Shown here: in pieces, positions 6,994-63,600 of the stretch | How the letters are laid out: each line of letters starts with the position of its first letter | Numbering within the stretch: the stretch's first letter is position 1 | Assembly (NCBI GenBank): GCA_963532425.1 | Contig: CAUSKK010000013.1 | Span: 3,931 to 67,930, forward strand | Direction of reading: 5' to 3' | Source of the DNA: an uncultured Cardiobacteriaceae bacterium | Lineage (GTDB): Bacteria > Pseudomonadota > Gammaproteobacteria > Cardiobacteriales > Cardiobacteriaceae | DNA length: 64,000 bases | The notes under the pieces: generated by a model | What the model was told of the DNA's origin: nothing | Database searches by the model: none | Seen by the model: only the letters and a program-made list of their open reading frames with translations | Program-made: the position numbers and the translations under genes

Positions 6994-7755
6994 GAAGCGC
7001 TTCGTTTTCGCCCACATTGTGGAGGGAAGCGCTTCATCAAAATCCGACTCCCCAGCCCGAAGCGCTCCCCTTTTTAGTACCCACCGCCGGACGGCGAAGC
7101 GCTTCCCCCTAGTCTAGGCAGCTGGGCTAGCTGTCCAAAGCGCTTCGGTTCGGCCGGCCTTTTCTTCCGAAGGAAGCGGTGGTTCCACTGCCTTGCCGCT
7201 CGCTGCGCTGAAGCGCTTCCCTCCCCTTAAATCTGGGCCCGCCAGAGGAAGCGCTTCGCTCTCACCGCCTGCTCCCTCTGAAATATTCTCGGCCCGGGCT
7301 TGAAACGACCGTTTGATTATCTTGGCCGATTCAGCGGGCTGGGCCGGGCGAAGCGCTTCGGGTGAAATGGCCTTTTCTTTCGCGATTGCGCCCCGTCGGA
7401 CGTTTTTACGAAGCGCTTCGGCTTGAACCGTCCCTTTGGTAGCTAAAGAAAGCGCTTCGCTCGGTTCTCACTCGTTTGAATTGGCGGTGGGAAACGCTCC
7501 CCTTTCCCAGCCCTAGCAAAGCGAAGCGCTTCGGCGTTTTGGCCCTTTGGGAAACGAAGCGCTCCCCTCGGCCCGGGTTTGGCCGTTCGATTGTCCCGAC
7601 TCATTTAGTGGGATTAGCAGGCTGAAGCGCTTCTGTCTGGACTTTCAGACCGAAGCGCTTCGGTTTCGCGGCCGAGGTTTAGAGGATGGGAAGGGGGCGG
7701 GAACCGGTGAAACGCTCATCCTGCCGATAGCGATTTAGCCAACCGAAGCGCTCCT
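6994..7755. repeat. array A of GAAGCGCTTC palindromes (10 exact plus 5 one-mismatch copies)
   Basis: Manual scan. Copies are spaced ~25-100 bp apart in a non-coding 3'-3' gap. ORF-track peptides here are KRF/EALR/SAS artefacts of the palindrome. Confidence 0.9.
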
Positions 7756-7908
7756 CTCTTTCAAATTAGACTGGAATTTTAAGGAAGCACTCGGCGGGCA
7801 GCGGGACGGCGGCCCGGGAGCAAAAGAGAGTTTTTTCCCATGACGTTTTCCCACATGAAAAAAGATTTTTAGCCATTGCTCCCTATTTCGGGGGGCCAAA
7901 ATGGGGCT

Positions 7909-8103
7909 CTAGTCCGTCGGTTCCTGTTTGTCCCAGCTCAGGTCCAGTTTCTTCTTCCGCCGCTGTTTAAGAGTGATGAGTGCCGGCGGCAGTTCCCGTA
8001 GCCGGTTCATGTCCAAATCCAGGGTTTCCAGATTCTCCAAATTGCCCAGTTCCGGCGGTACTTCCTGCAGCTGGTTACCACTCAGAATCGGATATCCAGA
8101 TAT
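7909..8103 (-). pseudogene. out-of-frame 3' continuation of the LRR gene
   Basis: A minus-strand frame open from 8103 to TAG at 7909-7911 reads 'LSGNQLQEVPPELGNLENLETLDLDMNRLRELPPALITLKQRRKKKLDLSWDKQEPTD*'. This is two more canonical LRRs plus a tail, shifted by -1 relative to 8082..9503. Confidence 0.8.
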
Positions 8104-9503
8104 CTAAGGTCTCGCAAATTCCCCAGTTCCGGCGGCAGCTGGGTCAGAGCATTGCATCTCAGGGTAAGCCACTCAAGCTCCGGTAAATTACCCAATTCCA
8201 ATGGCAGCTCCCGTAGTTCATTGCTTTCCAGATGTAACCATTTCAGTTGCTTCAAGCCCCCCAGCTCCGGCGGCAGCTGGGTCAGAGCGTTATGGCCTAA
8301 ATAGAGATGCTCCAATTGGTCGAGCTGACCCAGCGTTGGCGGTAGCTCCCGTAGTCTGTTCCAATCCAATTTTAGCGTTTTCAGGTTTCGTAAATTCCCC
8401 AGTGCCGGCGGTAATTTCTCTAGGCCAACATTCTCCAAACTCAAAAATTTCAATTTATGTAAATTGACCAGCTCCGGGGGCAGCTGCTTCAGCGCTTTGC
8501 AATAATCCAGACGAAGGGTCTCCAAGCAAGGGAGCTGACCCATGACCGGCGGCAGCTCCTGCAGCGGATTGCTTTGCAAGTACAACTCTGTCAAGTGTTC
8601 CAGTTTGGCCAGACTCTCCGGCAGAAAAACGATAGCGTTGTGGGAAAGGTTAAGGATTTTTAGATTCTGCAGCTCGCTAATTTCCGGCGGTAGATAGGTG
8701 ATAACTCGCTGTTTGTCGGCTTCATCGTCATCCGGGTCGGCTATATATTTTAGGTTGAGCTCCCTGAGCCGCTGCAGGGCGACCCGGTCGCGGGGGAACT
8801 TGTCCCAGCTGATGTTAAATTCATCGGCCCAGTCGTAGAGGGCCTGGAAATTCTCATCGTCTTCTCGAAACAAATCCTTGTCGTCCACCTTAATATCTGG
8901 CAGCCAGTTGCTCATACGGTGAAGCACTTTAATCCCCTCCGGCAGCTGCTCCAGCGGATTGGCACGTAGGTCGAGAGTAAGTCTGGCCCGCTTGGGCAGC
9001 TCGGCAATTCCAGCCGGCAGCCGGGTCAGCCGGTTGTTCGGCAGCAGGATATTTTCCAGCCGGGGCAGCCGGGGGCCAAAAATGGCCGGCAGTTCGACGA
9101 GCTCGTTGTGGCCGAGGTCGAGGGTCTCCAGGCGCAGCAGGCCGACCAGCTCTGGTGGCAGCCGGCCTAGCCGGTTATGGTTCAGGCGGAGAACCTGCAG
9201 CCGGTGCAACTGGCCAATTTCGGCGGGGATTTCCGTCAGCCGGTTATTGCTTACATCCAGCTCGGTCAGGGTTGACAGCTGGCCCAGTTCCGCCGGCAGG
9301 CTTTCCAAACCGCTATGGCTGAGGTTCAGCGTGCGCAGTTTCTTGAGCGCGGCCAGTTCCGGCGGCAGCGACGCCAGGACCAGGCCGGATAAATCCAAGA
9401 CGGCCAGCTTTTCCAGGGCCTCCGGGTCGCGGGGGAAGCGCTCGGCGGGCAAGCCAGCGGCATCGGCCCAGGAGCAGAGACTATCAAACGAAGCTTTTTT
9501 CAT
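8082..9503 (-). CDS. leucine-rich repeat protein, two LRR modules (C-terminally truncated by frameshift)
   Basis: 473 aa with ~23-residue repeats 'L..L..L.L..N.L..LP.E(L/I)G.L'. Each module follows a cap of the form 'W-AD....(W)..FPRD..AL..L..L(D/N)L'. Confidence 0.9.
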   Translation of the reverse strand: MKKASFDSLCSWADAAGLPAERFPRDPEALEKLAVLDLSGLVLASLPPELAALKKLRTLNLSHSGLESLPAELGQLSTLTELDVSNNRLTEIPAEIGQLHRLQVLRLNHNRLGRLPPELVGLLRLETLDLGHNELVELPAIFGPRLPRLENILLPNNRLTRLPAGIAELPKRARLTLDLRANPLEQLPEGIKVLHRMSNWLPDIKVDDKDLFREDDENFQALYDWADEFNISWDKFPRDRVALQRLRELNLKYIADPDDDEADKQRVITYLPPEISELQNLKILNLSHNAIVFLPESLAKLEHLTELYLQSNPLQELPPVMGQLPCLETLRLDYCKALKQLPPELVNLHKLKFLSLENVGLEKLPPALGNLRNLKTLKLDWNRLRELPPTLGQLDQLEHLYLGHNALTQLPPELGGLKQLKWLHLESNELRELPLELGNLPELEWLTLRCNALTQLPPELGNLRDLRYLDIRF

Positions 9504-9572
9504 GGTTTTTCCTTAATGGGAAGGGATTCACTCGATTAATACGGGATAAAACCGACCGAAGCGCTTCCCCCA

Positions 9573-9598
9573 TAAAAAAACCCGCCCGGGGGCGGGGT
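9573..9598 (-). terminator. intrinsic terminator after the AAA+ gene
   Basis: The minus strand reads CCCGCC-CCCG-GGCGGG followed by T7. It sits 8 nt after the TAA at 9606-9608. Confidence 0.75.
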
Positions 9599-9605
9599 TT
9601 GGGAT

Positions 9606-10685
9606 TTAGAGCATGTCCCGGGCGGCGCGGTAGAGGTCCTTCCAGTCGTCGCGGCCCTTGACCACCGTTTCCAGATACTCCTTCCAGACGATGGCGTCCT
9701 GTACCGGGTCCTTGACCACGGCACCGAGCAGACCGGCCATGAGGTCATCGGCCCCAAGGGCACCGTCGCCGAAGTAGGCACTCAGCGCCAGCCCGTTATT
9801 CACCACGGAAATGGCCTCGGCGGTGCTCAGGGTGCCGCTGGGGCTTTTCAGCTTGGTTTTGCGGTCGCTGGTCAGGCCGGCGCGCAGTTCGCGGAAGATG
9901 GTAACGATGCGGCGAATTTCCGCCAGGGCCGGCTTTTCCGCCGGCAGTTTCATGGTTTCCTCGTACTGTTCCACCCGGCTGCGCACAATCTCCACCTCCT
10001 CGTCCAGGGACGCCGGCAGCGGCAGTATCACCGTGTTAAAGCGCCGTTTCAGCGCGCTGGACAGGTCATTGACGCCCTTGTCGCGGTTGTTGGCGGTGGC
10101 GATGAGGTTGAAACCGCGAATGGCCTGCACCTCCTTATTCAGCTCGGGAATGGGCAAGGTTTTTTCCGAAAGAATGGTAATCAGCGTGTCCTGCACATCG
10201 GAGCCGATGCGGGTCAACTCCTCCACCCGGGCAATCTTGCCGTCCTTCATGGCCCGCATCACCGGCGTTTCCACCAGCGCGCTTTCGCTGGGGCCCTTGG
10301 CGAGCAGCTCGGCATAGTTCCAGCCGTAGCGCACGGCCTCCTCGCCGGTGCCGGCGGTGCCCTGGACCACCAGCGTGCTATCGCCGGCGACGGCGGCGCT
10401 GATGTGCTCGCTGACCCAGCTCTTCGCCGTGCCGGGCAGACCGTAGAGCAGCAGGGCCCGGTCGGTGGCCAGGGTGGCGACGGCGATTTCCATCAGCCGG
10501 CGATTGCCGATGTACTTGGGTTTAATTTGGAATTTATTGGCCAGCTTATCGCCCATGAGATAGCTCACCACCGACTGGGGCGACAGCTGCCAATTCTCGG
10601 GGATGGGGTGTTTTTCCTGTTTTTTCAGCTGGGCCAGTTCCTCAGCAAATTGCTGTTCGGCGTGTTGTCTCAGAATGTCAGACAT
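9606..10685 (-). CDS. MoxR/YehL-like AAA+ ATPase
   Basis: Walker A 'LLYGLPGTAKS', Walker B region 'IARVEELTR', 'ATANNRD' and 'LKRRF'. The 'MSDILRQ' ATG at 10685 overlaps the upstream stop (ATGTCTGA). Confidence 0.85.
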   Translation of the reverse strand: MSDILRQHAEQQFAEELAQLKKQEKHPIPENWQLSPQSVVSYLMGDKLANKFQIKPKYIGNRRLMEIAVATLATDRALLLYGLPGTAKSWVSEHISAAVAGDSTLVVQGTAGTGEEAVRYGWNYAELLAKGPSESALVETPVMRAMKDGKIARVEELTRIGSDVQDTLITILSEKTLPIPELNKEVQAIRGFNLIATANNRDKGVNDLSSALKRRFNTVILPLPASLDEEVEIVRSRVEQYEETMKLPAEKPALAEIRRIVTIFRELRAGLTSDRKTKLKSPSGTLSTAEAISVVNNGLALSAYFGDGALGADDLMAGLLGAVVKDPVQDAIVWKEYLETVVKGRDDWKDLYRAARDML

Positions 10686-12102
10686 GGTTTTTTCCTTGGT
10701 TAAAAAAATCGTCAAGCACTTGCAGTGCGTCATATTCGGCCCACAGCGGGGCCAGCGCCGGCCAATCGGCCAGCCGCCGCCGCCACTGGCGAAAAATCGG
10801 GCCCCGGTGCAGCCGGGCCGCCAGTTCCACCGCCGCCCCGGGGGCCGCCCCCAGCCGCAGCCAGCGGTGCACCATCAGCAGGGCGTAGTAGGGCCCCCAG
10901 ACCATTTCCGGCGTCAGCATGGCCGGCAAATCGTCGCGGGCCCGGCGGCCGGCGGCGGGCAGGGCTTCCAGCTGGGCCCGGGTGAACGGCGCCCCGGCGC
11001 CCAGCACCCGCTCCGGCTCGTTTAACAGGGTCAGCAGCCCCGGCACCCGGGCCGTCCAGTGCCGCACCAGGGCGTCCTGGCTGGCCGGCGGCAGCGTGCC
11101 GAAAACCCGGAGCAGGTCGCGGTTGGTGAAGAAATCCGGGGCTGTGGCGAAATAGGGCACGTGCAGGCTCGGCGGCAGCTGGCCGAGCCAGCGGTAGAAA
11201 CGGGCGGGGCTGGGGAAAATTTGGTCGCGCAGGCCCGGGTCGCGCTGCCAGAGCTGAATCAGACTAGGAATGTCCGGGCAGTGGCAGAGGGCCAGCCAGG
11301 TGGCCGGGTCCCTGACCCGGGCGGCCAGAATGCCGATGGCGTTGGGTCGGCCCAGGCCCGGTTCCGAGCGAAGCGCTTCCGGTGGCAGGGCCGCCACACG
11401 GAAGCCCACCTCGGCCCGCCGGCCGAGCCACCGGGCCAGCCCGGCCCAGCGGCGGGGCGGGTCGTAGTGGAGGGCAGCGCGTAGCCAGCGTTGCTGGCGG
11501 GCCGGGTCAAGCAGACCCACTTCGGCCCCCAGGCAGCGTTTCAGCGTCGCCCGTTCGGCCCGGTCGAGCCGGGGCCCGAGCCGCCGCAGCCAGCGCCGGT
11601 CGGCCCGGCTGAAAAAGCGGGCACTGGCAATGAGCCCAATCTGGCGCGGCTGGCCGGCCGACCGCTGCCGTTGCCAGAGGGCGTGCAGGGCCCGGCGCCA
11701 GCGGTCGCCATCGAGCCGGTGCAAAGCCCGGAGCTCGGCGAAACGTTGCGGCCGGGTCAAACCCGCGAGGCCGGCCAACGCCAGCGCCGCCGTCGACCGG
11801 GCCCGTTCCCCCCGCCGCTCGCGCTCCGGCGCCGCTAGCAGCGGCAGAAAAAGGCCGGGCCGCCGGTGAAGCGCTTCGCCGGGGCGGAAATGGAGCGTCT
11901 GCCAGTCGGCGGCGGTCAGCCGGTAGCGGTTACTACGCAGCAGCCGGGCGCCGAGCAGGCCAATGGCCGACCAGCCCCGGACCGCCTGCCAGCGCTGCCA
12001 GGCGACGCGCAGCGGCTCCGGCAGGGGTGGGGGCTCTGCTCGGCACCCGGCCACCGGGGGAAGCGCTTCGGTGCCGACGGCCCGGGGGCGGGAGGCATTC
12101 AT
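10678..12102 (-). CDS. hypothetical 474-aa Arg/Trp/Leu-rich protein (operon member, no recognisable motif)
   Basis: Long ORF that is start/stop-coupled to both neighbours. Contains in-frame copies of the palindrome as E-A-L. I recognise no domain. Confidence 0.6.
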   Translation of the reverse strand: MNASRPRAVGTEALPPVAGCRAEPPPLPEPLRVAWQRWQAVRGWSAIGLLGARLLRSNRYRLTAADWQTLHFRPGEALHRRPGLFLPLLAAPERERRGERARSTAALALAGLAGLTRPQRFAELRALHRLDGDRWRRALHALWQRQRSAGQPRQIGLIASARFFSRADRRWLRRLGPRLDRAERATLKRCLGAEVGLLDPARQQRWLRAALHYDPPRRWAGLARWLGRRAEVGFRVAALPPEALRSEPGLGRPNAIGILAARVRDPATWLALCHCPDIPSLIQLWQRDPGLRDQIFPSPARFYRWLGQLPPSLHVPYFATAPDFFTNRDLLRVFGTLPPASQDALVRHWTARVPGLLTLLNEPERVLGAGAPFTRAQLEALPAAGRRARDDLPAMLTPEMVWGPYYALLMVHRWLRLGAAPGAAVELAARLHRGPIFRQWRRRLADWPALAPLWAEYDALQVLDDFFNQGKNHV

Positions 12103-12110
12103 GGGGGCGG

Positions 12111-13793
12111 CTAGGCCTTCGCGGCCAGGGCGTCATCGAATTGCAGGCGCGATTCGTAGAAGGCCAGCACCCGGCCGAAGCTGTCGAGCAGCTGGCGCTC
12201 CTGCATCATTTGGCGCACCTGGGCGCTGTTACCCCCGCCGACCTCGGCCAGGTCGTCGGCGGGCTGGGGCGCCGGCGGCTGTTCCCGGAAGGCCACCGCC
12301 AGGGCGCGCAGGGTCGGGCTGGCGCTCAGCCGTAGGGCCGCATAACGCTGCTGGCTGTGCTGGTAATAGAAATAACTGTCGCAGTGGCGAACGGTATAGA
12401 GAACCAGCAGCGAATAGCGTTCACCCCAGGGCTCGCCGGTGTCGTCATTGAAATCCGTCAGCAGGCTAAAGTCCATATTTTCCCAGCGCCGGGCCGCCGC
12501 CGAGTGGCCGAGGAAAAACTCCTCGGGCCGCTGGAAGAACAGCTTCAGGTGGGGATTGTGTTCGGCCTGGGCGGCCAGCACCCGTTCACGCTGGGCGCTG
12601 TTGAGCTGCTTCAGGAGCCACAGGTTATTGTCCTTGTAGTGGCCCATCGTCGGCTGCCGGCTGAGATATTCCACCAGAAAGGCCGTGCCCAGTTCGCTGA
12701 GCCAGCCGTGGTAGCTCTGGCTGCTCGTCAGCCAGCCGTGTTCAAAATAGCGCTGGGCCAGCGGCGTGCGAATCAGAGTTTCGGCCAGTTCGGCCACGTC
12801 CGCGCTGTGGGTCATTTCCAGCCAGAATTCCAGCCGGTGGACGCGGTGAATCAGCTGGCGGCGCAGGAAGTTATCGTCGCTCTCATTTTTATCGCTGCTG
12901 ATTTCCTCCAGTCCCAGCGCCTTCATCTCCTTGCTGAAGGCCAGCGGCGTCATGTGCCAACCGGCCTTGTCATGGCTGAGCGTCTGCCGAAGCCAGCCCT
13001 CCAGCGCCCGGGTGCTGGCGCTGTCCGGCAGCCGGGCCAGCAGAAGGCCGGCCGTCTCGCGCACGTTGCTGGAACGGTCCTTCAGGCAGGCTTCGATGAA
13101 GGGAGCGTCGGCCGGACTAAGGTTGTTCCGCAGCAGCTCCAGATAGGCCAGCCGGTGATTGGCCGGGGCCCCCTTCCAAATCTCCTCCACCCGGAGCCGG
13201 GCCGCCTCGGGATTTTCCCGGCGCAGGCTGCTGAGATGGGCGCGGCGACCGCTGAAATCCAGCTCCAGCAGCGGGTCGGCGTCCGGGGCCGGCGTGGTGG
13301 GGGCGCTGCCCAGCTCGGTGCGCAGGTCGTTCGGCAGTTCGGCGCCAAGCTGGGTCAGCAGCCAGCGGCCCCGGTCGTCCAGCAGGTCGAGCCGACCCTT
13401 GAGCCGTTTCACTTCGCCGCGCAGGAGCAGCCGTTGCAGGCTGGCTTCGTCCAGACAATGGCCACTCCGTTTCAGGGTCGCCAGGGCGTAATCGAGATAG
13501 TCGCGCTCGTCCTGTTCGAGCCAGGCGGTCAGCACCCGTCGGGCCGGGGCCGGCAGCACCCGGCCGTCCGGGGCCGGGGCCGGTGGTATCGGCTGCCAAT
13601 CATCCTGATGGGTTTCCAGCCGGGCGCCGCTGCGGTCGGAGCCGTAGGCCAGGGCCAGCAGGTCATAGGCCCGGGGCAGCGCTTCGGCCGGGGGCAGCCG
13701 GGCCACGGCTTCGGCCAGCGGGGGCGGGGGCGGCGGCAGGGGACCGGCGTCGAGGCCCATCAGGGCAGCATTGAATAGTTGGGGATTAAGCAT
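12111..13793 (-). CDS. hypothetical 561-aa helical protein, possibly DUF5691-like
   Basis: ATG 13793 ('MLNPQLFNAALMG') overlaps the SWIM gene stop (ATGCTTAA). 'LKDRSSNVRETAGLLLARLPDS' is HEAT-like. The DUF5691 assignment is from memory of SWIM-adjacent genes only. Confidence 0.6.
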   Translation of the reverse strand: MLNPQLFNAALMGLDAGPLPPPPPPLAEAVARLPPAEALPRAYDLLALAYGSDRSGARLETHQDDWQPIPPAPAPDGRVLPAPARRVLTAWLEQDERDYLDYALATLKRSGHCLDEASLQRLLLRGEVKRLKGRLDLLDDRGRWLLTQLGAELPNDLRTELGSAPTTPAPDADPLLELDFSGRRAHLSSLRRENPEAARLRVEEIWKGAPANHRLAYLELLRNNLSPADAPFIEACLKDRSSNVRETAGLLLARLPDSASTRALEGWLRQTLSHDKAGWHMTPLAFSKEMKALGLEEISSDKNESDDNFLRRQLIHRVHRLEFWLEMTHSADVAELAETLIRTPLAQRYFEHGWLTSSQSYHGWLSELGTAFLVEYLSRQPTMGHYKDNNLWLLKQLNSAQRERVLAAQAEHNPHLKLFFQRPEEFFLGHSAAARRWENMDFSLLTDFNDDTGEPWGERYSLLVLYTVRHCDSYFYYQHSQQRYAALRLSASPTLRALAVAFREQPPAPQPADDLAEVGGGNSAQVRQMMQERQLLDSFGRVLAFYESRLQFDDALAAKA

Positions 13794-15090
13794 GGGCGGC
13801 CTCCGGCAGGAAGGACAGCAGCCGATTGCGGCCGTCGTTGAAGTTGTGCAGCACAAAGGCCGTGCCGGCCCGGCCGCCGCTGCTGGCCAGCAGCTGGATT
13901 TTTTCGTTTGGATTCAGGGCCAGGGGCAGGACCTGCTGGCCGTCGCTGAGGCCGCCGGCCTCGCCGCGCTGCACATAGTGCACGCCGCGCAGCCACAGGG
14001 GCCAATGGTTCAGAAAGGGATTGGCGGCGATGGCCTGCTGGGCCCCGGCCCAGGTTTCTTGCAGCGGCTCGGCCGGGGCGGCCAGGGGAAGCGCTTCCTC
14101 GTTGAAGTTCAGGGTTTTCGGCAGGGCGCGCAGCGGGTTGATGCCGGCATAGAAACACAGTTCGGCGTCATAGTGGGTGCCCACGGCCAGCGGCGGCAGC
14201 GCCGGCGGGACGTTGTTCATGGTGAAATCCAGCAGCAGGGCGAAGCGCTTCGTTTCCAGGCCGAAGAGATAGTAATGAAGGGAGGTGCCGCGCTGCTGTT
14301 CCAGTTCCAGCCGGCCCACCACCCGCCAGCGGTCGGCGACGGCAGCCCCGGCCAATATCTCCTCCTTGGCCTGCGGGAAGCCGAGGCGGGTTTTGATTTC
14401 CGCCTGCCAGGCCGGGCTCAGCTGTTCCTGGTTGGCATAGCTGCGCGCGAGCAGATGGAGCTTGCTCAGGCCGTAGAGCAATTCCTCCTGTTGGCCGGCC
14501 GGCAGCAGGGCCAGCCGTTGCAGCTCCTGGGCCAGCGGCGCCAGCTGGGCATCGACCAGCCGTTTGGCCATGGCCGGGAAGGCTTCGCCGCGCTGGTTGT
14601 CGGTGTGAATGATGCCGTTGCGCAGCAAATCCTGCAGCCACAGCTGCAAATCGGCGAGGCCGGCACTGACCTTCTTGGCCCGGGCGGCGGCGGTTTTCTG
14701 CTGCTGTTTCGGGTCGGCGGCCTTGCTGGCCTTGGCTTCGGCCCGGGCGGCCTTGGCCTCCTGGGCGCTGCTGCGTTTATCCAGCCAGGCCTGCACCCAG
14801 TCGGGGCTTTCCGCAGCCATGATTTTTTCCGGGTTGGCGCTGGCCACCTGGAGCAGGGAAAGGGCGTGTTTACAGGGGAATTTGCGGCTGGGACAGCTGC
14901 ATTTGCTCACCAAATCGCCGGCGGCGATAACGGTTTGATAGGGATTTTTGCCACTGCCTTTGCACAGACCCCAGAGGGCGGCGTCGTTGCCGCCGAGCAG
15001 CTGCCATTTGCCGGCCAGGCCCCGGGCGGCACTGATGGAGGCGCTGTCGGGCGCCAGTTGATTGATTTGTTCCGTACTTAAGCTAATCAT
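13786..15090 (-). CDS. SWIM zinc-finger protein
   Basis: 'CSCPSRKFPCKHALSLL' matches the CxCx(n)CxH SWIM signature. GAGGA RBS upstream of ATG 15090. First gene of the operon. Confidence 0.85.
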   Translation of the reverse strand: MISLSTEQINQLAPDSASISAARGLAGKWQLLGGNDAALWGLCKGSGKNPYQTVIAAGDLVSKCSCPSRKFPCKHALSLLQVASANPEKIMAAESPDWVQAWLDKRSSAQEAKAARAEAKASKAADPKQQQKTAAARAKKVSAGLADLQLWLQDLLRNGIIHTDNQRGEAFPAMAKRLVDAQLAPLAQELQRLALLPAGQQEELLYGLSKLHLLARSYANQEQLSPAWQAEIKTRLGFPQAKEEILAGAAVADRWRVVGRLELEQQRGTSLHYYLFGLETKRFALLLDFTMNNVPPALPPLAVGTHYDAELCFYAGINPLRALPKTLNFNEEALPLAAPAEPLQETWAGAQQAIAANPFLNHWPLWLRGVHYVQRGEAGGLSDGQQVLPLALNPNEKIQLLASSGGRAGTAFVLHNFNDGRNRLLSFLPEAAHA

Positions 15091-16520: not shown

Positions 16521-16524
16521 ATAA

Positions 16525-53942: not shown

Positions 53943-53953
53943 CCATTAGCGAG

Positions 53954-54413
53954 GAAGCGCTTCAACCGGAGCAGATTTAGAAAGGGGGAGCGCTTCGTTC
54001 TGGAACGCGGCTCCCGGCCGAGAAAACCAACTGGAGCAAATCCAGCCGAAGCGCTTCGGTTTTAGCCGGCTCGGGCCGGGGGGAAACGGCTTCAGAGGGG
54101 AAGCGCTTCGTTCTAGAGAGCCCAGCTTCGGCCCCGGCGCCCAGAAAAGCCATTGCCAACGAAGCGCTTCGGTTTAGCGCTGTAGATTGCTTAGGAGGGA
54201 GCGCTTCGACTGGTGGGGCCAATGGAGTGAAGCGCTTCGTTTGGGGAGACGGGAAACCCCGGCCCGATGGGGAACGGGGAGCGCTTCGGCAACCCCATTG
54301 GAGAGGAAGCGCTTCCCCAGAACGAAGCGCTTCGGTTTGAACCCAAAGAAGGAAGCGCTTCCGGCCGGCCCCGGGCAACGAAGGCTTCCGGCCGGCCCAG
54401 GGGGAAGCGCTTC
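53954..54413. repeat. array F of GAAGCGCTTC palindromes (9 exact plus 4 variant)
   Basis: Manual scan of the 3'-3' gap before ahpF. Confidence 0.9.
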
Positions 54414-54420
54414 TCTGCCT

Positions 54421-54446
54421 AAAAAAAACGCCGCCCGGCGGCGGCG
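54421..54446 (-). terminator. intrinsic terminator after ahpF
   Basis: The minus strand reads CGCCGCC-GCCG-GGCGGCG followed by T8. Confidence 0.8.
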
Positions 54447-54452
54447 CGGGGG

Positions 54453-56009
54453 TTAGCCCTGGCGTTGCAAATAGTCAAAGGCGCTGAGGGCGGCCTTGGC
54501 GCCCTCGCCCATGGCGATGATGATTTGCTTATAGGGAACGGTGCTCACGTCGCCGGCGGCAAAGAGGCCGGGAATGTTGGTTTCACACTTGGCGTTGATG
54601 ACCACCTCTCCGGCCGGCGTCCGTTCCACCTCGGCGCCGAGGAAATCGCCGTTCGGCACCAGGCCAATCTGGACGAAGACCCCGGCCAGGGGCAGCGACC
54701 GTAGCTGCTGGCTGGCCCGGTCGAGGTAGTCGATGCGGCTGACGGTGCCGTTTTCACTGTGAATGGCCTGCACCGCCGCCTCGGTGATAACGCGGATATT
54801 GGCGCGCCGGCCCAGCTGTTCCACCAGCACTTTGTCGGCCTTCAGCGTCGGCTGGAATTCCAGCAGGGTTACGCTGCCCACCATATTGGCCAGGTCCAGC
54901 GCCGCCTCCACGCCGGAGTTGCCGCCGCCGACCACGGCAATGTCCTTGCCCTTGAAGAAGGGGCCGTCGCAGTGGGGGCAGAAGGCCACGCCGCTGCCGA
55001 TGTTTTCCCGTTCGCCGGGCACGCCCAGTTCCCGCCATTTGGCGCCGCTGGCGACGATGACCGTGCGGCTTTCCAGCACCTCGCCGCTGTTCAGGGTGAG
55101 GCGGAAGCCCGGCCCTAGCGTTTCCAGCTTGGCCACGCGCAGGTTCTCGCGGCGGTTGATGTTATAGGCCTCGAGGTGGCGCTGGAGGTTCTGGGCCAGC
55201 TCGGTGCCGGTGGTTTTGACCGTGGCGATGAGGTTTTCAATGTCCACCGTGTCCTTGACCTGGCCGCCGATGCGGTCGGCCACTAGCGCCACCTTCAGGC
55301 CCTTGCGCGCCGCATAGATGGCCGCCGAGGCTCCGGCCGGGCCGCCGCCAATGACCACCACGTCCTGCAGGGGAAGCGCTTCGTCCGGAGCGCCGGCCGC
55401 CAGCTCCGGCTGCCGTTCCAGCAGCTTGGCCACCAGCGTGGCCGGGTCAATCTTGCCGTTGGCGAAGGATTCGCCGTTGAGGAAGACCGCCGGCACGCCC
55501 TGGATATTGCGGCGCTCGATTTCCTCGGGATAGAGGCCGCCGTCAATCATTTCGCTGCTAATCAGAGGGTTAAGCAGGGCGAACTGGTTCAGGGTCTGCA
55601 CCACGTCCGGGCAGTTGTGGCAGGAGAGGGAGACGAAAGTCTCAAAGCGCAGCGGCGTCCGGACGGCCCTGATGAGCTTCTGAATGCCCGCGTCCAGCTT
55701 GGGCGGGTGGCCGCCGGCCTGGAGCAGGGCCAGTATCAGCGAGGAAAACTCGTGGCCGCCGGGAATGCCGCTGAAGACGATGCCGGTGGGCTCGCCGTCG
55801 ACGATGAGGGCAAAGCTCAGCGGCGAGCGCAGGGGCAGGGCCGCCGCCGTAACGAAGAGGTGTTCCGAGGTGCTGGCCAGCTGCTGGAGAAACTGTTCCA
55901 AGGCCGGCCGCTGGGGGTGTTCGCCCGGAGCCAGAGCCAGGCTGACATCTTTCTGGAGCTTGGCCAGATGGCCGCGCACCGCCGCTAGCATTTCATTATC
56001 TAAAAGCAT
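54453..56009 (-). CDS. ahpF: alkyl hydroperoxide reductase subunit F
   Basis: 518 aa. 'CHNCPDVV' and 'CPHCDGPFF' redox centres. 'VIGGGPAG' and 'VVGGGNSG' Rossmann motifs. Confidence 0.96.
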
Positions 56010-58652: not shown

Positions 58653-59325
58653 GCGGCTACGGCCGGGCCTGCGCTTCTGGCACTGGTTTCTGTCCGGCCT
58701 CAGCCTGCTGCTGCTGGCGCCGCTGCTGCTCTACGGCTGGATTAGCTGGCGGGCGGCCCCCTACCAGTACGACGATTTGGAGGCGCTGCCGGCGCGCTCG
58801 GTGGGGCTGGTGCTGGGGACGAGCAAATATCTGGGCCACGGCCAAATCAACCTCTACTACCGGGGGCGCATCGAGGCCGCCCTGGCCCTCTACCGGGCCG
58901 GCAAGGTGCGCTATTTCATCGTCAGCGGCGATAACCGCAGCGTCTCCTACAACGAGCCCCGGCAGATGCGCCTGGATTTAATCGCCGGCGGCGTACCGGC
59001 CCATCGTATCCAGCCGGACTTTGCCGGCCTGCGCACCCTGGATAGCGTGTTGCGCGCCGCCGCCATCTTCGGCCAGGACGACTACATCATCATCAGCCAG
59101 CCCTTCCACAATGCCCGCGCCCTCTGGCTCGCCCGCGCCCGGGGCCAGCATCCCATCGCCTTCAACGCCCCCAACCCCCGGCGCTGGCGCCACCGGCTGA
59201 AAACCGAACTGCGCGAGGTCGGCGCCCGGCTCAAGGCCCTCTGGGATTTGCTCAGCCAGAAGCAGGCCCGCCACTACGGCCCGCCCATCGACTTCCCCCC
59301 GCCGCCGGAGCCCGACGCCCCATGA
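58633..59325 (+). CDS. sanA: SanA/YdcF-like (DUF218) membrane protein
   Basis: N-terminal TM then 'VLGTSKY.....N.YY..RI.AA..LY.AGKV...IVSGDN....YNEP..M...L...GVP...I..D.AG.RT.DS'. ATG 58633 chosen to minimise overlap with the HAD gene. Confidence 0.8.
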   Translation: MCCRLFRRLRPGLRFWHWFLSGLSLLLLAPLLLYGWISWRAAPYQYDDLEALPARSVGLVLGTSKYLGHGQINLYYRGRIEAALALYRAGKVRYFIVSGDNRSVSYNEPRQMRLDLIAGGVPAHRIQPDFAGLRTLDSVLRAAAIFGQDDYIIISQPFHNARALWLARARGQHPIAFNAPNPRRWRHRLKTELREVGARLKALWDLLSQKQARHYGPPIDFPPPPEPDAP

Positions 59326-60095
59326 ACCGCCGCGACTGGGGCCAGGCCCTGACCCTGGGCGCCCTGCTGGCCCTGGTGCTGGGCTACGGGTTGGCGCTGC
59401 TGCAGCCGGCCGGCGACCGTTTCGGGCCCTGGCTGCGGGCGATGATGACGCTGGTGCCGCTGCTGCTGCTGCTGCCCTTTGTCTGGCGCCGGGTGCCGAA
59501 GGCCTATCAGATTCTGGCCCTGCTGGCGCCCTGGCATTTCTTCGTCGGCGGGGTGATTTGGCTCTGGGGGGAGCCGGCCGCCGGCGCTTATTTCTGCCTG
59601 GGGGCGCTGCTGCTCCAGACCGGCACCATTCTGCACAACTACCGGCCGCGCCCACCCCGGCTACGCCTGCCGGCGCTGGTGCCGCTGGGCGCCGACGACC
59701 TGGCCCTGCTGGTGAGCCGCGACGATGCCCGCTACCGCGCCTGGGCCGAGGTCTGGGCCGGGGCCAGCTATGAGGGCCCGGGGCCGGGCCTGGGCGAACT
59801 GCTGGCCGACGATGTCTGGGCCACGGCGCCGGCCGGAGTGCTGCGCCTGGAGGACCGGGCCGGCCGCAACTGGTTTCGCCTGCCCCTGACGCCCAGCCAA
59901 CGGCAGATTTTGACCCGCCAGGGCCGGCTGCTGCTGCTGCCCCTGCCGAAGGAGGCCGCCACCCCAGCCCGGGCCGAGGCCCTGGCCACCCTCCCCCCCG
60001 ACGATGATGTCGCGCTGGCCCACTGGCTCAGCGCCGAAGGCCTGGAGGGGCTGGGCCTGACCTTCCGACCGACGGAAAGCGCTGCCGAACGCTAG
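59322..60095 (+). CDS. hypothetical membrane protein (257 aa)
   Basis: ATGA overlap with the sanA stop. Four hydrophobic segments followed by a soluble C-terminal half. No motif recognised. Confidence 0.6.
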   Translation: MNRRDWGQALTLGALLALVLGYGLALLQPAGDRFGPWLRAMMTLVPLLLLLPFVWRRVPKAYQILALLAPWHFFVGGVIWLWGEPAAGAYFCLGALLLQTGTILHNYRPRPPRLRLPALVPLGADDLALLVSRDDARYRAWAEVWAGASYEGPGPGLGELLADDVWATAPAGVLRLEDRAGRNWFRLPLTPSQRQILTRQGRLLLLPLPKEAATPARAEALATLPPDDDVALAHWLSAEGLEGLGLTFRPTESAAER

Positions 60096-60106
60096 TCCGC
60101 CGACCC

Positions 60107-61855
60107 GAAGCGCTTCGGACTCCGTAGAAGTCTGAAACGCAGCGAGCGACAGGCAAGCCACCGCTTCAAGCTCTACGGAAGCGCAGCGGCGGGCGAGCCA
60201 ACGGCGAGCACCCCAGCAACTGCTTCGCCCGCCGGCCCAATTAAGGAAGCGCTTCGTTCGTCCGCTGCCCCGCTGGCCGACCGAAAAGAGTGCCACCCCG
60301 AAGCGCTTCATTGGGAACGCCTTTCCCAGTCCGAAGCGCTTCCCCTTTTCCCGTTTTTCCTGAGCGAAGCGCTTCCCTTGGGTGCCGCTATCCCCAATGG
60401 CCCGAAGCCGGCATTGCTATTCCCTGTCGGACTTCAGAACGAAGCGCTCCCCCTGGTTAGAACCTAGGAAGCGCTTCGTTCGTTCACGGCCCCGAGGTTC
60501 AACCAAAAGGAGAGCCGCCCCGAAGCGCTTCAGTTTAGTCCCCCGAGGCCGAATTTATTTTTCCCGGCCTCTGAGGTCGAAGCGCTTCCCTATTTGAGCC
60601 GGTAATGATTGAACCGGGGCCAACCGGCCGAAGCGCTTCGCCCGCCTAACCCATAAGGAAACGCTTCCCTTGGGTGCCGCTATCCCCAATGACCCGAAAC
60701 CGGCATTGCTATTCCTTGCCAGACTTCAGAACGAAGCGCTCCCTCTGGCTAGAACCCAGGAAGCGCTTCATTCCGACTAGCGAAGCGCTTCCCTTTTGCC
60801 GGGCCGGTGATTATTTATGTCAGACCGAAGCGCTTCGTTGAGATTAGCCTTCGAGGGAGAAGCGCTTCCGGCTGGAGATTCAGAACGAAGCGCTTCCTCC
60901 TCCGGCTGTTAAAACCGAAACGCTTCGGCCCGGGCCGGGGCTAATACGACCGTTGAACGGTAGCGCTTCCTTCCCAACTTGGCCAATGGCGAAGCGCTTC
61001 GGCCCGGCCAGTTGCTCTAAACCGAAGCGCTCCCCGTTTTCCCAGCCGGAAGCGCTTCAGTTTTTTTTGAGCCGGCGGGGCGAAGCGCTTCCTGCCAATG
61101 GCTAGAGCTGCCACTGGGCCGGGGAAAAATCTACAGGCTAAGGCCGAAGCGCTTCATTCCTAGGATTTGGCGAAGCGCTCCCCTCTGTTGTCCTAGCCAG
61201 TCGAAGCGCTTCGCTGGGAAAAAACCTTGGGAAGGAAGCGCTTCCGTTGGATACGGCAGAAGGGAGCGCTTCGATTTAGAGCGGGGTCGAAGTAGAACGA
61301 AGCGCTTCGTTCTAACGGCCTGGCCAGAAGGACTTTAGACCAGCGGGCCGATTTATCTGGCTGCGCCGGGGGAAGCGCTTCGGTTCTGGCGTCCCAGTCC
61401 AGAGGGGGCGTTGCTCGTCCGGCAAACGCGCGGCGCTGAAGCGCTTCAGTTTTAAACGGCAGATTTTCGGGAAGCGCTTGGGCTTCCGGAAATCGCTCAA
61501 GGGGGGAGCGCTTCGTTTCCGGAGGCCAGATAAACCGAAGCGCTTCGTTTCGGCGGTTCGCAGAGATTAAGGAATCGCTTTAAGGGAGAACGCGCTTCAT
61601 TTTCCAACGGCTTTTAATCATCACGAGCCCCGGCCCGTCAGAACCAAAGCCCTTCGGCCGCTGGCCAGGTGTTGGCCGGGCCGATGATTTAAAGAGGGAG
61701 CGCTTCGCTTCGGCCTCTTAGGTTTGCTTTCTAGGCTGAAGCGCTTCGTTCGGCGGTAGAAGAAAACGGCTGGACATTGGCTTGGCACTGGGAGCGAAGC
61801 GCTTCGGCTCCAGGGGGATTGAACAATCCGCAAACGGCCGGCGGGGAAGCGCTTC
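60107..61855. repeat. array G of GAAGCGCTTC palindromes (27 exact plus more than 12 variant)
   Basis: Manual scan. Contains a ~118-bp internal duplication (60362-60480 vs 60657-60775). Confidence 0.9.
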
Positions 61856-61936
61856 GTTCCCGGAAGCCAGCTGGGAAAAGCATCTCCGGCCGCGCCAGCA
61901 GAGCAAAGCACCGAACCCCCGGCAAGCCCGCTGGGC

Positions 61937-62896
61937 TTAGGCCAGTGCCGTTAGCCGTTCCAGCAGGGCCAGAGCGTCCGGCGGTGGCGGGACGGCCAGC
62001 CCCAGCAGCTGGCCGGCATCACGCTGAAAGCACAGGCGCTGGGCGTGCAGCCACATGCCGTCATAGCCGTGCCGTTTCAGGGTTTTATTGAATTCGCGGT
62101 CGCCATATTTATCGTCGCCGGCCAGCGGGTGGCCGCAGTGGGCCACGGACAGGCGAATCTGGTGGGTGCGGCCGGTGGCGATGCGCACGGACAGCAGCGT
62201 GGCCTCCTCGTAGCGCGCCGCCACGGTGAAATAGCTCAGCGCCTCCTTGCCCTCCGGGTGCACCACCATGCGGTCGCCGTCCTCGCTCTGAATCTTCGCC
62301 AGCTTCAAACGCACCTCCTGGCGGGCCGCCGGCCAGTGGCCGCGCACCAGACAGAGATAGTGCTTTTCCACGGTGCCGGCCTTGAGCTGCTCCTGAAAAT
62401 CGAGCAGGGCCGCCCGGGTTTTGGCCAGCACCAGCAGGCCGGAGGTGTCCCGGTCGATGCGATGGCCGAGCAGCACCGCATCGGGGCCGCGCAGGGTCTG
62501 CAGCGCTTCCATCAGGCCATAGTCATTGCCGCTGCCGCCGTGCACGGCCAGGCCGGCCGGCTTATTGACGAGCAGGAAGCGCTCGTCCTCGTAGACCACC
62601 GCCCGCCGTACCCGTTCCAGCCAGTAGGGCGGCACCGCCGGCGGTCGCACGGTTTTTTGATAGAGCGGCGGCAGGCGCAGCTGGTCGTCGAGCTGGAGGC
62701 GGTGGCTGGCCGCCACCCGCTTTTTGTTGCAGCGCACTTCGCCCTTGCGCAGCATCTGGTAGAGGCGGCTTTTCGGAATGTGGGGATAGCGACGAAAGAG
62801 GAAATTATCGAGCCGCTGGCCGTCCTCGCGGGCGGTGATGGTCAGAAAATGGACGCCCCGGCGTTCCAGCTCGGGGGGCAGGTCGGATTCGCTCAT
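61937..62896 (-). CDS. rluC: RluA-family 23S rRNA pseudouridine synthase (RluC-like)
   Basis: S4 domain 'RLDNFL......PKS....(M/I)RKGEVR.N', catalytic 'HRIDRDTSGLL(V/L)LAK' and 'THQIR'. ATG 62896 with an AAGGAA RBS; the ORF track uses TTG 62923. Confidence 0.88.
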   Translation of the reverse strand: MSESDLPPELERRGVHFLTITAREDGQRLDNFLFRRYPHIPKSRLYQMLRKGEVRCNKKRVAASHRLQLDDQLRLPPLYQKTVRPPAVPPYWLERVRRAVVYEDERFLLVNKPAGLAVHGGSGNDYGLMEALQTLRGPDAVLLGHRIDRDTSGLLVLAKTRAALLDFQEQLKAGTVEKHYLCLVRGHWPAARQEVRLKLAKIQSEDGDRMVVHPEGKEALSYFTVAARYEEATLLSVRIATGRTHQIRLSVAHCGHPLAGDDKYGDREFNKTLKRHGYDGMWLHAQRLCFQRDAGQLLGLAVPPPPDALALLERLTALA

Positions 62897-62954
62897 GGCA
62901 GTTCCTTGTGGCGTTGTTCTCAAAGGGGAAAGCGCTTATAATGCCTGCCCTTTC

Positions 62955-63028
62955 GGGCCTATAGCTCAGTTGGTCAGAGCAGGCGACTCATAATCGCTTG
63001 GTCGGGGGTTCAAGTCCCTCTGGGCCTA
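62955..63028 (+). tRNA. ileX: tRNA with CAU anticodon, tRNA-Ile2 (lysidine-type) by similarity
   Basis: Cloverleaf folded by hand: acceptor GGGCCTA/TGGGCCT (two G-U pairs), D arm GCTC/GAGC, anticodon arm GGCGA-CTCATAA-TCGCT, T arm GGGGG-TTCAAGT-CCCTC. The anticodon arm and variable loop are identical to E. coli ileX as I remember it. Confidence 0.85.
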
Positions 63029-63030
63029 TA

Positions 63031-63600
63031 TCAGGAAGCGCTTCTCGCGGGAAGCGCTTCTTTTTTTATGCCCAGCAGCCGGCCATAGAAGGGCCAGCAG
63101 AAGGAAGCGCTCGGGTCGGTTTTGCGCCCCGGGGCGATGTGCTCGTGGCCGGTGATGGCGGCCAGGCCGGGATAGCGCCGCTGTAGGGCTTGGGTCAGGG
63201 CGGCCAGCCGTTGGTACTGGCGCAGCGTGTAGGGAAGATTATCGGCGCCGTTCAGTTCGATGCCGATGCTGAAGTCGTTGCAGTTGGCGCGGCCGTTGAA
63301 CTGGGAAACGCCGGCGTGCCAGGCCCGGGCCTCGGTGGGGACGAACTGGATAATGTCCCCGGCCCGGCCAATATAGAAATGGGCCGACACCCGGAGGCCG
63401 GCGAGGCCAGCGAAATAGGGGTGGGCGGAAAGATTTAAAGCGCCCGTGAAGAGCGCTTTAACGGCGTCGGCGCCCCAGACGGCCGGGGGCAGACTGATGC
63501 TGTGGATGACCAGCAGTTCCACCGGTGCCGGCCGTTCGTTATGGAACGGGCTCGGCCAGCGCTCGGCTTCGTCCAGCCAGCCGGCGGCGTCAATGTGCAT
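63031..63600 (-). CDS. ampD: 1,6-anhydro-N-acetylmuramyl-L-alanine amidase
   Basis: 'LLVIHSISLPP', 'VSAHF.I.R.G...QFV....RAWHAG.S', 'N..SIGIEL.G' and 'I.GH..IAPGRK.DP'. Confidence 0.92.
   Translation of the reverse strand: MHIDAAGWLDEAERWPSPFHNERPAPVELLVIHSISLPPAVWGADAVKALFTGALNLSAHPYFAGLAGLRVSAHFYIGRAGDIIQFVPTEARAWHAGVSQFNGRANCNDFSIGIELNGADNLPYTLRQYQRLAALTQALQRRYPGLAAITGHEHIAPGRKTDPSASFCWPFYGRLLGIKKEALPARSAS
63035..63067 (+). terminator. tRNA terminator built from two GAAGCGCTTC copies
   Basis: GAAGCGCTTC (63035-63044), TCGCGG loop, GAAGCGCTTC (63051-63060), then T7. The two palindrome copies can pair as a 10-bp stem. Confidence 0.7.

Follow-up and report, generated by a model that had tools for sequence, protein, structure and literature searches.

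We have identified a 10-bp palindrome, GAAGCGCTTC, that occurs as 123 exact copies in the window (the whole 64-kb stretch of DNA that we analysed), whereas dinucleotide-preserving shuffles of the window contain a mean of 0.18 copies and a maximum of 2. We tentatively favour the view that GAAGCGCTTC, with its core AAGCGCTT and AGCGCT at the very centre, belongs to the HIP1 class as a hyper-abundant word specific to its lineage, and is subject to a sequence-level force. The original prediction had put the over-representation at roughly 1000-fold; the enrichment itself holds, but the figure becomes ~700-fold when measured against shuffles and ~1,700-fold by the base-composition estimate that accompanied the prediction. 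In another assembly of the same organism we counted 1,302 copies in 541 kb (1 per 416 bp), such that the frequency outside the window is equally high, and not near expectation. The core AAGCGCTT is 188-263-fold above expectation. Within the window, GAAGCGCTTC is absent from an island of 34% GC. We found no published description of GAAGCGCTTC in the literature.

Clustering of the exact copies reproduced the predicted arrangement of seven arrays (100 copies, split 11, 3, 9, 21, 20, 9 and 27) plus scattered copies, with 11 rather than 10 copies in array 1 and 23 rather than ~25 scattered copies. The word had been described as starting at position 6994, but further copies lie upstream, at 1783 (in cmk), 5098 and 6946. 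The arrays, to which no strand is assigned, are as follows:

6946-7754, no strand: array 1, 11 exact words (6946-7661) plus variants; non-coding gap 6985-8081, between convergent genes for a hydrolase (6166-6984, plus strand) and an LRR protein (8082-9503, minus strand); the first copy, at 6946, lies inside the gene end.
16642-16762, no strand: array 2, a small array of 3 exact words and 2 variants; gap 16521-17006, between convergent DoxX (plus strand) and 17007-17552 (minus strand) genes; a 58-bp repeat is also present in this gap.
20443-20901, no strand: array 3, 9 exact words and 2 variants; gap 20352-20935, between convergent gmk (plus strand) and a flavodoxin-like gene (minus strand).
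30449-31824, no strand: array 4, 21 exact words (30 if variants are included); gap 30305-31872, between a convergent Sel1-repeat gene (plus strand) and an HTH gene (31873-32160, minus strand).
40149-41806, no strand: array 5, 20 exact words (29 if variants are included); gap 39939-41881, between convergent aspS (plus strand) and a DUF6683 gene (minus strand); an ordinary terminator hairpin lies at either end of the array.
53954-54413, no strand: array 6, 9 exact words (13 if variants are included); gap 53943-54452, between a convergent plus-strand gene and ahpF (minus strand).
60107-61855, no strand: array 7, 27 exact words (36 if variants are included); gap 60096-61936, between convergent genes 59322-60095 (plus strand) and 61937-62923 (minus strand).

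Thus, all seven arrays are located at junctions of convergent genes, and of the eight such junctions in the window, seven hold an array; together the arrays make up ~12% of the window. In a larger set of loci, selected for containing arrays and annotated with a crude GC3-based gene caller, we identified arrays at 19 of 41 convergent junctions but only 17 of 278 others (odds ratio 13, p=3e-10). The non-genic share of GAAGCGCTTC in this larger set is 85%, in arrays with one copy per 127 bp. The same arrays recur in short-read assemblies built independently from other samples (L001, L008, L079 and L093); hence, they are not an artefact. We observed no enrichment of terminator-like sites in the arrays, and Tandem Repeats Finder and Rfam detected nothing within them.

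The distance from word to word is sharply peaked at 33 bp (161 cases) and 32 bp (108 cases), with minor peaks at 16, 18 and 28 bp and an overall range of 14 to >300 bp. The spacers are mostly 18-50 bp long and unique. Identity between spacers of different loci was 0.325, compared with 0.252 after shuffling, and such similarities reflect local duplications only; we detected neither spacer families common to different loci nor spacer matches to phage or plasmid. A ~33-bp unit whose spacer consensus is weakly palindromic is nonetheless present. The upstream flank of GAAGCGCTTC is purine-rich and the downstream flank T-rich, giving a mirrored consensus of approximately CAGAnC on the left and GAAGC on the right, and the palindrome is extended symmetrically, as had been proposed, by C/G before the word and G/C after it. 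Agreement with the flank consensus is only 30-55% per position. Left and right flanks show statistical independence at each of positions 1-18 (n=1,082), without the covariation expected of a hairpin, and pairing between mirror positions across the spacer of a doublet is below expectation (z=-4.1). Symmetric flanks that do not covary argue against a hairpin, whether of the REP or terminator type, and for recognition of duplex DNA by a symmetric protein.

Departures from the exact word are concentrated at its edges. The window contains 62 one-mismatch sites, in line with the dozens predicted, the commonest being GGAGCGCTTC/GAAGCGCTCC (32 sites). The mismatch falls at one of the two outer positions of GAAGCGCTTC at 57 of these 62 sites, and at 546 of 627 in the larger set; inner-position variants are few and mainly transitions. 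The central positions of GAAGCGCTTC are thus the most protected. Between strains, substitutions affect 1.9% of positions in words and 4.4% in spacers (p=0.023, a modest test). Array length varies among strains, the breakpoints of cassette indels coincide with words, and array positions are kept while contents turn over, showing that arrays change by gain and loss of whole word-plus-spacer cassettes.

Words also occur inside genes. In the larger set, called genes hold 254 of 1,678 copies, and confident genes hold 151. Words in genes occur about once per 2-3 kb and are evenly distributed along them. The copies in the window include the following:

1783-1792, plus strand: cmk copy, in the peptide GREALRL, upstream of the range originally described.
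36457-36997, minus strand: two copies in lpxK (36457 and 36988), each encoding Lys-Arg-Phe.
38457-38466, plus strand: aspS copy, encoding Glu-Ala-Leu as GAA GCG CTT.
55373-55382, minus strand: ahpF copy, in the peptide DEALPL.
63035-63060, minus strand: two words 16 bp apart, in the last residues (…EALPARSAS, then stop) of gene 63031-63600, which adjoins tRNA-Met.

Although CTT accounts for only 4% of Leu codons in the window, GAAGCGCTT encodes 12 of the 35 Glu-Ala-Leu (EAL) tripeptides there (0.11 expected). In the larger set, it encodes 109 of 318 EAL tripeptides (0.79 expected), and 45 of 47 Lys-Arg-Phe (KRF) tripeptides are written as the word (10.7 expected). The claim that the third reading frame is never used did not survive: one copy at 63035 is read in that frame (RSAS, then stop), as are 17 of the 151 copies in confident genes of the larger set. 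In a codon alignment of aspS, word-less relatives have GAG GCG CTG where the window has GAA GCG CTT, and the alignment also contains an Arg-to-Lys replacement by which the word is created. These patterns indicate that genic words arise by point substitution that overrides codon bias and sometimes changes amino acids.

Comparison with relatives indicates that related lineages carry variants of one core, with a patchy distribution. The closest relatives (88% and 81% identity in aspS) lack GAAGCGCTTC, as does D. nodosus, and close relatives have no arrays. One relative (L007) instead has CAAAGCGCTTTG dispersed through genes at ~1 per 360 bp, and a distant relative (L010) has T/A-flanked doublets of AAGCGCTT that are 31-33 bp apart. 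The closest word-less relative contains 52-bp hairpins of the form GGCGCTT…AAGCGCC, which have the half-site AAGCGC in common with GAAGCGCTTC; one of them lies directly 3' of aspS, the site occupied by array 5 in the window.

The nearest precedent is HIP1 (GCGATCGC), the highly iterated palindrome of cyanobacteria, which shows palindromic extensions, a protected centre, derivative words and patchy absences, and whose function is unsettled (PMC4390886, PMC5861425). Like HIP1, GAAGCGCTTC is a perfect palindrome, at least 100-fold over-represented where membership of the class calls for a minimum of 15-300-fold, that occurs about once per 0.4-3 kb in coding and non-coding DNA regardless of codon usage. 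It originates by substitution in ORFs, is extended palindromically past a core whose centre tolerates change least, and has lineage-specific derivative words alongside close relatives that lack it. Both words also enclose typical type II methyltransferase targets (AGCGCT, RGCGCY and GCGC in GAAGCGCTTC). The analogy to HIP1 and uptake sequences drawn in the original prediction is therefore upheld by a genome-wide word, genic point substitutions, a protected centre and variant words in relatives. HIP1 itself is rejected, since the sequence is different and the host is not a cyanobacterium but belongs to another phylum (Gammaproteobacteria, Cardiobacteriaceae-like). Moreover, the conserved word is 10 bp rather than 8 bp, and most copies are in dense, 33-bp-spaced arrays between convergent genes; such dense arrays of fixed spacing are not known for HIP1, so the arrays are without precedent in this class.

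If GAAGCGCTTC is a HIP-class word, it would be recognised by a putative twofold-symmetric protein that reads double-stranded DNA, candidates being a DNA-modifying enzyme (e.g. an orphan methyltransferase) or a DNA-binding protein. The force would act on the sequence itself, through selection for sites or through a biased conversion/repair drive, either of which fits the present data; it would fix point substitutions that create words and slow the decay of words, opposing codon preference and occasionally the amino-acid sequence in genes. Between convergent genes, where promoters and coding constraints are absent, words would accumulate until closely packed. The preferred centre-to-centre distance of 32-33 bp may correspond to a single extended site or to the footprint of a protein. 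Strain comparison shows that arrays lengthen and shorten as unequal recombination or slippage from word to word adds or deletes word-plus-spacer cassettes, and that spacers drift neutrally. Given the 33-bp spacing and the near-complete occupancy of convergent junctions, however, the arrays could be selected structures rather than passive sinks. A tblastn probe for C5-methyltransferase homologues found none in ~660 kb, part of the genome, and a Pfam scan of 30 window genes found no DNA methyltransferase domain.

It is also conceivable, though unlikely, that GAAGCGCTTC is the preferred ligand of competence (type IV pilus) uptake machinery and has spread by molecular drive. Word-bearing fragments would then be preferentially taken up and recombined, as with the DUS of Neisseriaceae and the USS of Pasteurellaceae, and the arrays would represent extreme hot spots of uptake in tolerant DNA. 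Like DUS and USS, GAAGCGCTTC is a hyper-abundant word in the 9-12-mer range, created in genes by point substitution in few reading frames and with extra copies downstream of genes; its genome-wide density (~1 per 0.4-2 kb) is consistent with uptake. Dichelobacter nodosus, of the same family, is naturally transformable and type-IV-piliated, and the window contains a gene for a secreted SNase-type nuclease (4348-5076) as well as the island devoid of copies. However, DUS and USS are both asymmetric, and all dialects known to us are non-palindromic, whereas GAAGCGCTTC is a perfect palindrome with symmetric flanks. It has only AAGCG in common with the Apl-type USS ACAAGCGGT and, as was originally stated, fits no known dialect. 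DUS have family-level dialects (PMC3630211), and HIP1 itself has recently been tied to transformation efficiency (bioRxiv 10.1101/2024.09.10.611283). The variant cores in related lineages resemble dialects of this kind, but GAAGCGCTTC is patchy among relatives rather than family-wide, being absent even from D. nodosus and the closest relatives. Drive models, like real USS and DUS, give roughly even spacing and not arrays of 20-36 copies at 33 bp: with 85% of copies non-genic and in arrays, only the genic density of 1 per 1.9 kb resembles the dispersed, even distribution of DUS/USS. Nor are the arrays enriched in terminator-like sites, unlike inverted DUS/USS pairs.

Somewhat less probable still is that the arrays are selected nucleoprotein structures, in which a dimeric protein coats sites spaced by ~33 bp where convergent transcription units meet. 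Such structures would be insulators or roadblocks, or boundaries of supercoils or domains, and the scattered genic copies would be secondary sites. The sharp spacing peak, the occupancy of convergent junctions in the window and the larger set, the retention of array positions between strains despite turnover of content, and the better conservation of words than spacers are all consistent with this, as is the recurrence of 31-33 bp in the same-core doublets of the distant relative. Nevertheless, ~12% of the window would be a very costly investment that close relatives manage without, array size ranges from 3 to 36 words, and 17 non-convergent junctions also hold arrays. Phasing is imperfect, because 33 bp corresponds to 3.1 helical turns, and no single phase accommodates the minor peaks at 16, 18 and 28 bp. 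The strong codon-level pressure in genes would also be left unexplained.

We consider it very improbable that GAAGCGCTTC is the core of a REP/BIME-like miniature element, multiplied by a transposase, of RAYT type or another, and accumulating extragenically downstream of genes. As with REPs, BIMEs and REPINs, short palindromes are clustered extragenically past gene 3' ends, often at convergent junctions and with a sharp neighbour distance, and the ~33-bp unit has its weakly palindromic spacer consensus. REPs do occur in the family: the catalogued Cardiobacterium hominis REP Chom-22, GTAGGGTGGGGCTTGCCCCACC (PMC4690160), was found in two relatives (L012 and L136) and GTAG-type REPs in a third (L010), and the half-site in the 52-bp hairpins, one of them at the position of array 5, points the same way. 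The window, however, contains neither Chom-22 nor a GTRG-hairpin family, and the Pfam scan of 30 window genes detected no transposase or RAYT domain. GAAGCGCTTC has no GTAG head and no stem-loop beyond the 10-bp core, ~15% of copies are genic and arose by point substitution, and spacer covariation is negative. Since the spacers are not replicated units, the flanks are too variable and Tandem Repeats Finder and Rfam were blank, we rejected assignment to REP/BIME/REPIN, and the possibility raised at the outset that the word is the core of a catalogued REP or MITE is not borne out, given the absence of Chom-22, of hairpin covariation and of spacer families.

The intergenic mosaic elements of Neisseria consist of variable RS cassettes flanked by arrayed 20-bp dRS3 inverted repeats. 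Here too, a short inverted-repeat word separates variable intergenic cassettes, which recombination at the word adds or removes; RS cassettes, however, are 50-150 bp long and form repeated families, unlike the mostly shorter, unique spacers described above, and dRS3 is not written into genes. CRISPR arrays were rejected on the basis of a 10-bp conserved repeat (23-47 bp in CRISPR), the spacing of 14 to >300 bp, the presence of seven arrays in 64 kb, the lack of spacer matches to phage or plasmid and the lack of cas domains in the genes scanned. Tandem repeats or satellites were rejected because none of the arrays was picked up by Tandem Repeats Finder; matches to the word in unrelated metagenomes and genomes are true tandem repeats and differ in appearance.

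Hyper-abundant genomic words are rare, and GAAGCGCTTC adds a clean and independent gammaproteobacterial example. What HIP1 does is still under debate after 30 years, the proposals being methyl-directed repair, nucleoid structure and transformation. Because sister species lack GAAGCGCTTC, the responsible gene could be identified by simple genome subtraction; close relatives without the word, together with two distant ones with a variant core, suit both a presence/absence gene search and tests of selection versus drive. Palindromic sites spaced by 33 bp, with neutrally drifting spacers, on ~12% of the window and at most convergent junctions are new, and bear on the evolution of bacterial non-coding DNA, transcription-unit boundaries and chromosome structure. 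Several short-read contigs of the organism terminate within or beside arrays, suggesting that short-read assemblies may break up at arrays and that MAG recovery of the lineage may be biased as a result. Quite possibly, this Cardiobacterium-like lineage has a sequence-specific DNA system not described before, built on a putative dimeric protein that is linked to a methyltransferase, to uptake or to the nucleoid. The 10-bp palindrome that serves as the site of this protein would have been driven into about half of the genes and into 33-bp arrays filling most convergent intergenic regions. If so, a HIP-like phenomenon would have arisen a second time, independently and outside the cyanobacteria.

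The 64-kb window contains 123 copies of the 10-bp perfect palindrome GAAGCGCTTC (the word; innermost AGCGCT, 8-bp core AAGCGCTT). In 100 dinucleotide-preserving shuffles the mean was 0.18 and the maximum 2, which rules out chance or composition as the origin of this count. Clustering of the exact words recovered the seven arrays of the original prediction, with 11, 3, 9, 21, 20, 9 and 27 copies; of 23 further, scattered copies, three (at 1783, 5098 and 6946) lie ahead of the point where the word had been said to begin. The window also holds 62 one-mismatch sites, and the word's flanks there are symmetric (C/G 5', G/C 3'), purine-rich upstream and T-rich downstream. The possibility that the word has a near-expectation frequency outside the window fails, since 72 loci of ERZ773090, another assembly of the same organism (the larger set), contain 1,302 exact words in 541 kb, or 1 per 416 bp. 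A metagenome scan for the word returned at least 120 loci; among the matches listed, most belong to a few ENA assemblies of the same organism, and the remaining ones are tandem repeats of the ordinary kind, built of conserved units. When 185,579 representative genomes were scanned for the pattern, only four matches came up, all unrelated strict tandem repeats, and a scan of viral contigs gave none. An assembly or adapter artefact is ruled out by independent short-read assemblies from other samples (L001, L008, L079 and L093), which show the same arrays in identical places, and is also contradicted by the in-frame copies within genes.

We mapped the genes of the window using GC3-supported ORFs and Pfam hits. 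The features referred to below, with others of the same region, are as follows.

4348-5076, plus strand: staphylococcal-nuclease-like (SNase) protein
8082-9503, minus strand: 473-aa leucine-rich-repeat protein; third-position GC 0.68, below that of its neighbours, so it may be acquired DNA
9606-15090, minus strand: cluster of four genes (AAA_5 (MoxR-like) ATPase, 474-aa protein without Pfam match, DUF5691, SWIM zinc-finger protein) with five genic word copies
16526-16647: 2.1 tandem copies of a 58-bp unit (GAAGCGGTTGCTGCGCGGCGG…) with a near-word at its start
16890-16948: third copy of the 58-bp unit, 250 bp off, inside small array 2
30449-31824: array 4
39903-40081: 48-bp tandem repeat, 3.7 copies, 95% matches, from the final aspS codons to the aspS terminator
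40149-41806: array 5, after aspS
49500-51900: island of 34% GC in surroundings of 63% GC; zero word copies; three ORFs (151, 434 and 150 aa), none with a Pfam match
60107-61855: array 7
62955-63028: tRNA-Met
63031-63600, minus strand: gene whose end adjoins the tRNA-Met

Each of the seven window arrays occupies a long non-coding gap flanked by convergent genes, and these gaps sum to 8.0 kb (12.5% of the window). The eighth convergent junction of the window is taken up by the 34%-GC island and has no array, and arrays were found at none of the seven divergent and none of the ~40 co-directional junctions. When junctions of the larger set were counted with a crude gene caller, taking four or more words as an array, arrays were present at 19 of 41 convergent, 14 of 232 co-directional and 3 of 46 divergent junctions (odds ratio for convergent junctions 13, p=3e-10). 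We conclude that the preference of arrays for convergent junctions is strong, but not absolute. Terminator-like and promoter-like sites in the arrays showed no excess over shuffles, which rules out arrays of terminators or promoters.

Within arrays, centre-to-centre distances between neighbouring copies of NNAGCGCTNN peak sharply at 33 bp (161 cases) and 32 bp (108 cases), with minor peaks at 28, 18 and 16 bp, a broad hump at ~57 bp and few distances below 26 bp. Spacers from different loci are 32.5% identical, compared with 25.2% for shuffled spacers, an excess that follows from a weak palindromic consensus due to flank preferences; the only clear similarities between spacers are local direct duplications inside one array. 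The arrays go unreported by Tandem Repeats Finder, which argues against a tandem repeat or satellite. CRISPR-like spacers are ruled out by the irregular lengths and by the lack of any match of spacers or arrays to phage and plasmid sequences. A known RNA family is likewise ruled out: an Rfam scan at gathering thresholds found only the tRNA-Met and no family in the arrays, and an E-value scan of array 7 gave only sub-threshold microRNA-hairpin noise.

The word is also frequent inside genes. GAAGCGCTT encodes 12 of the 35 Glu-Ala-Leu (EAL) tripeptides in window genes, where codon usage predicts 0.11 and CTT makes up only 4% of Leu codons. Across 107,000 codons of confident genes in the larger set, GAAGCGCTT encodes 109 of 318 EAL tripeptides (0.79 expected) and AAGCGCTTC encodes 45 of 47 Lys-Arg-Phe tripeptides (10.7 expected). 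The word had been thought to occupy two reading frames only; however, confident genes of the larger set contain 93 copies read as EAL, 41 as KRF and 17 as (R/G)SAS, so the third frame exists. In a codon alignment of aspS from eight genomes, word-bearing genomes carry GAA GCG CTT where word-less relatives have GAG GCG CTG or GAA GCG CTG, and Arg-to-Lys and Asn/Thr-to-Ser replacements create the core. Thus, genic words arise through point substitution, against codon bias. Genic copies are evenly distributed along gene length, without a bias towards 3' ends. Their density is ~1 per 1.9 kb by the crude gene caller, and the figure for window genes is 1 per 3.1 kb. Insertion of a mobile element fails to explain their substitution origin, even spread and density. 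In the gene at 63031-63600, two words lying 16 bp apart (63031-63060) encode the last nine residues (EALPARSAS, then the stop), and this gene end has apparently been shaped by words.

We compared the two sides of 1,082 non-genic words, and found a mirrored flank consensus, about CAGAnC|GAAGC·GCTTC|GnTCTG. At mirrored flank positions 1-18, Watson-Crick complementarity equals the expectation for independence (all |z| ≤ 2.4), and across doublet spacers in ERZ773090 mirror pairing is below expectation (z=-4.1, -2.9 and -2.6 at 33, 32 and 28 bp), so longer hairpins are apparently avoided. The consensus 22-mer can fold (-7.6 kcal/mol as DNA); actual copies lack that stem. Like half-sites without covariation would be the expected product of a twofold-symmetric reader of double-stranded DNA, and the pattern is not that of a REP/RAYT hairpin or a terminator. 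In the ERZ773090 loci GGAGCGCTTC, a single variant, has 262 copies, whereas its symmetric double form GGAGCGCTCC occurs once against ~13 expected with independent halves, suggesting that a word requires one or both half-sites to be perfect. Other symmetric double variants have no comparable deficit.

Among one-mismatch variants, 57 of 62 from the window and 546 of 627 from the larger set are altered at one of the two outer positions; inner-position variants are few and mostly transitions, as expected of recent decay. In aligned array segments of the window and L008, whose genes are 98% identical, differences affect 1.9% of word positions and 4.4% of spacer positions (Fisher p=0.023). Where the two differ by an indel, the piece gained or lost is typically a word plus its spacer, and the breaks fall at words; strain comparison thus shows turnover of cassettes. 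Array places are constant between strains and lengths vary, with 1,566 versus 1,829 bp for array 4, 1,943 versus 2,307 bp for array 5 and 1,841 versus 1,725 bp for array 7. L008 also holds about one copy of the 48-bp repeat at the aspS end, and its array 4 has an insertion, GCGAAGCGGTTGCT…, similar to the 58-bp unit.

The organism has a G+C content of ~63-65%, and its aspS is 78-81% identical to Cardiobacteriaceae MAG-labelled proteins and ~75% identical to those of Suttonella and Dichelobacter, which identifies it as a Cardiobacterium-like, uncultured gammaproteobacterium.

The word in loci of relatives, by aspS identity to the window
L008, ERZ773090: same species; word and arrays shared
L006: 88%; no word, no arrays; has, instead, 52-bp hairpins GGCGCTT…AAGCGCC, one of which immediately follows aspS
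L012, L136: 81%; no word; exact Cardiobacterium hominis REP Chom-22 present, which suggests a C. hominis-like source
L007 (GCA_030525785.1): 81%, 44% GC; AAGCGCTT 61 times in 21.8 kb, chiefly extended to the 12-bp palindrome CAAAGCGCTTTG; spread over genes and intergenic DNA, no arrays
L010 (GCA_030529365.1): 78%; AAGCGCTT doublets 31-33 bp apart within a repeated intergenic element
L009 (isolate TAE3-ERU3), L011 (Suttonella ornithocola), L134 (Dichelobacter nodosus), L135: 74-78%; no enrichment

Hence, the 8-bp core is shared, its flanks are lineage-specific and its distribution is patchy. L010 also contains, at 9050-9950, a ~400-bp repeated block with GTAG-type REPs of canonical form (GTAGGTCGGGCACTTGTGCCCGAC, GTAGGGACGTTGCCTGCAACGTCC). 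In L006, the closest word-less relative, the hairpins are intergenic (3942-3993, 8580-8631, 8858-8909, 11868-11919 and 13629-13680) and have the half-site AAGCGC in common with the word; one stands directly after aspS, in the place of a 1.9-kb array in the window. In L006, AAGCGCCC occurs 18 times against 1.6 expected.

Words of the HIP1 class (the cyanobacterial highly iterated palindrome) are perfect palindromes with a protected centre and palindromic extension, spread through genes independently of codons, with derivative words in relatives and word-less close relatives (Elhai 2015 PMC4390886; Xu et al. 2018 PMC5861425). GAAGCGCTTC matches all six features and shares molecular-drive-like features with uptake sequences, which together favour, tentatively, a HIP-class word that a symmetric protein, whose existence and nature we infer, would read as duplex DNA. 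That the word is itself an uptake sequence seems unlikely. It is somewhat less likely still that the arrays are selected nucleoprotein boundaries. A REP-like mobile origin, sustained mainly by the AAGCGC-ended hairpins of L006, is improbable, and a REP or MITE with a conserved body is ruled out by the lack of inter-locus spacer families and hairpin covariation and by the absence from the window of the C. hominis REP, so that the word is not the core of that catalogued element, as had been considered.

A tblastn search with a relative's C5-methyltransferase found no match in ~660 kb, part of the genome. Full-text literature searches turned up no paper in which GAAGCGCTTC, AAAGCGCTTT or AAGCGCTT is described as a genomic word of bacteria; matches to word or core were primers and operators of the cre/LacI family. 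The perfect form of these operators, TGAAAGCGCTTTCA, resembles the word core, a likeness we regard as a lead only. For Cardiobacteriaceae, the searches found nothing about palindromic words or uptake sequences apart from the unrelated REP Chom-22. If GAAGCGCTTC is a HIP-class word, the arrays would be accumulations in unconstrained DNA between convergent genes, packed at a single footprint of presumably ~33 bp and reshaped as words recombine unequally with one another, with either selection or biased conversion as the putative driving force. Arrays spaced at 33 bp at convergent junctions are new, being undescribed for words of the HIP or USS class.
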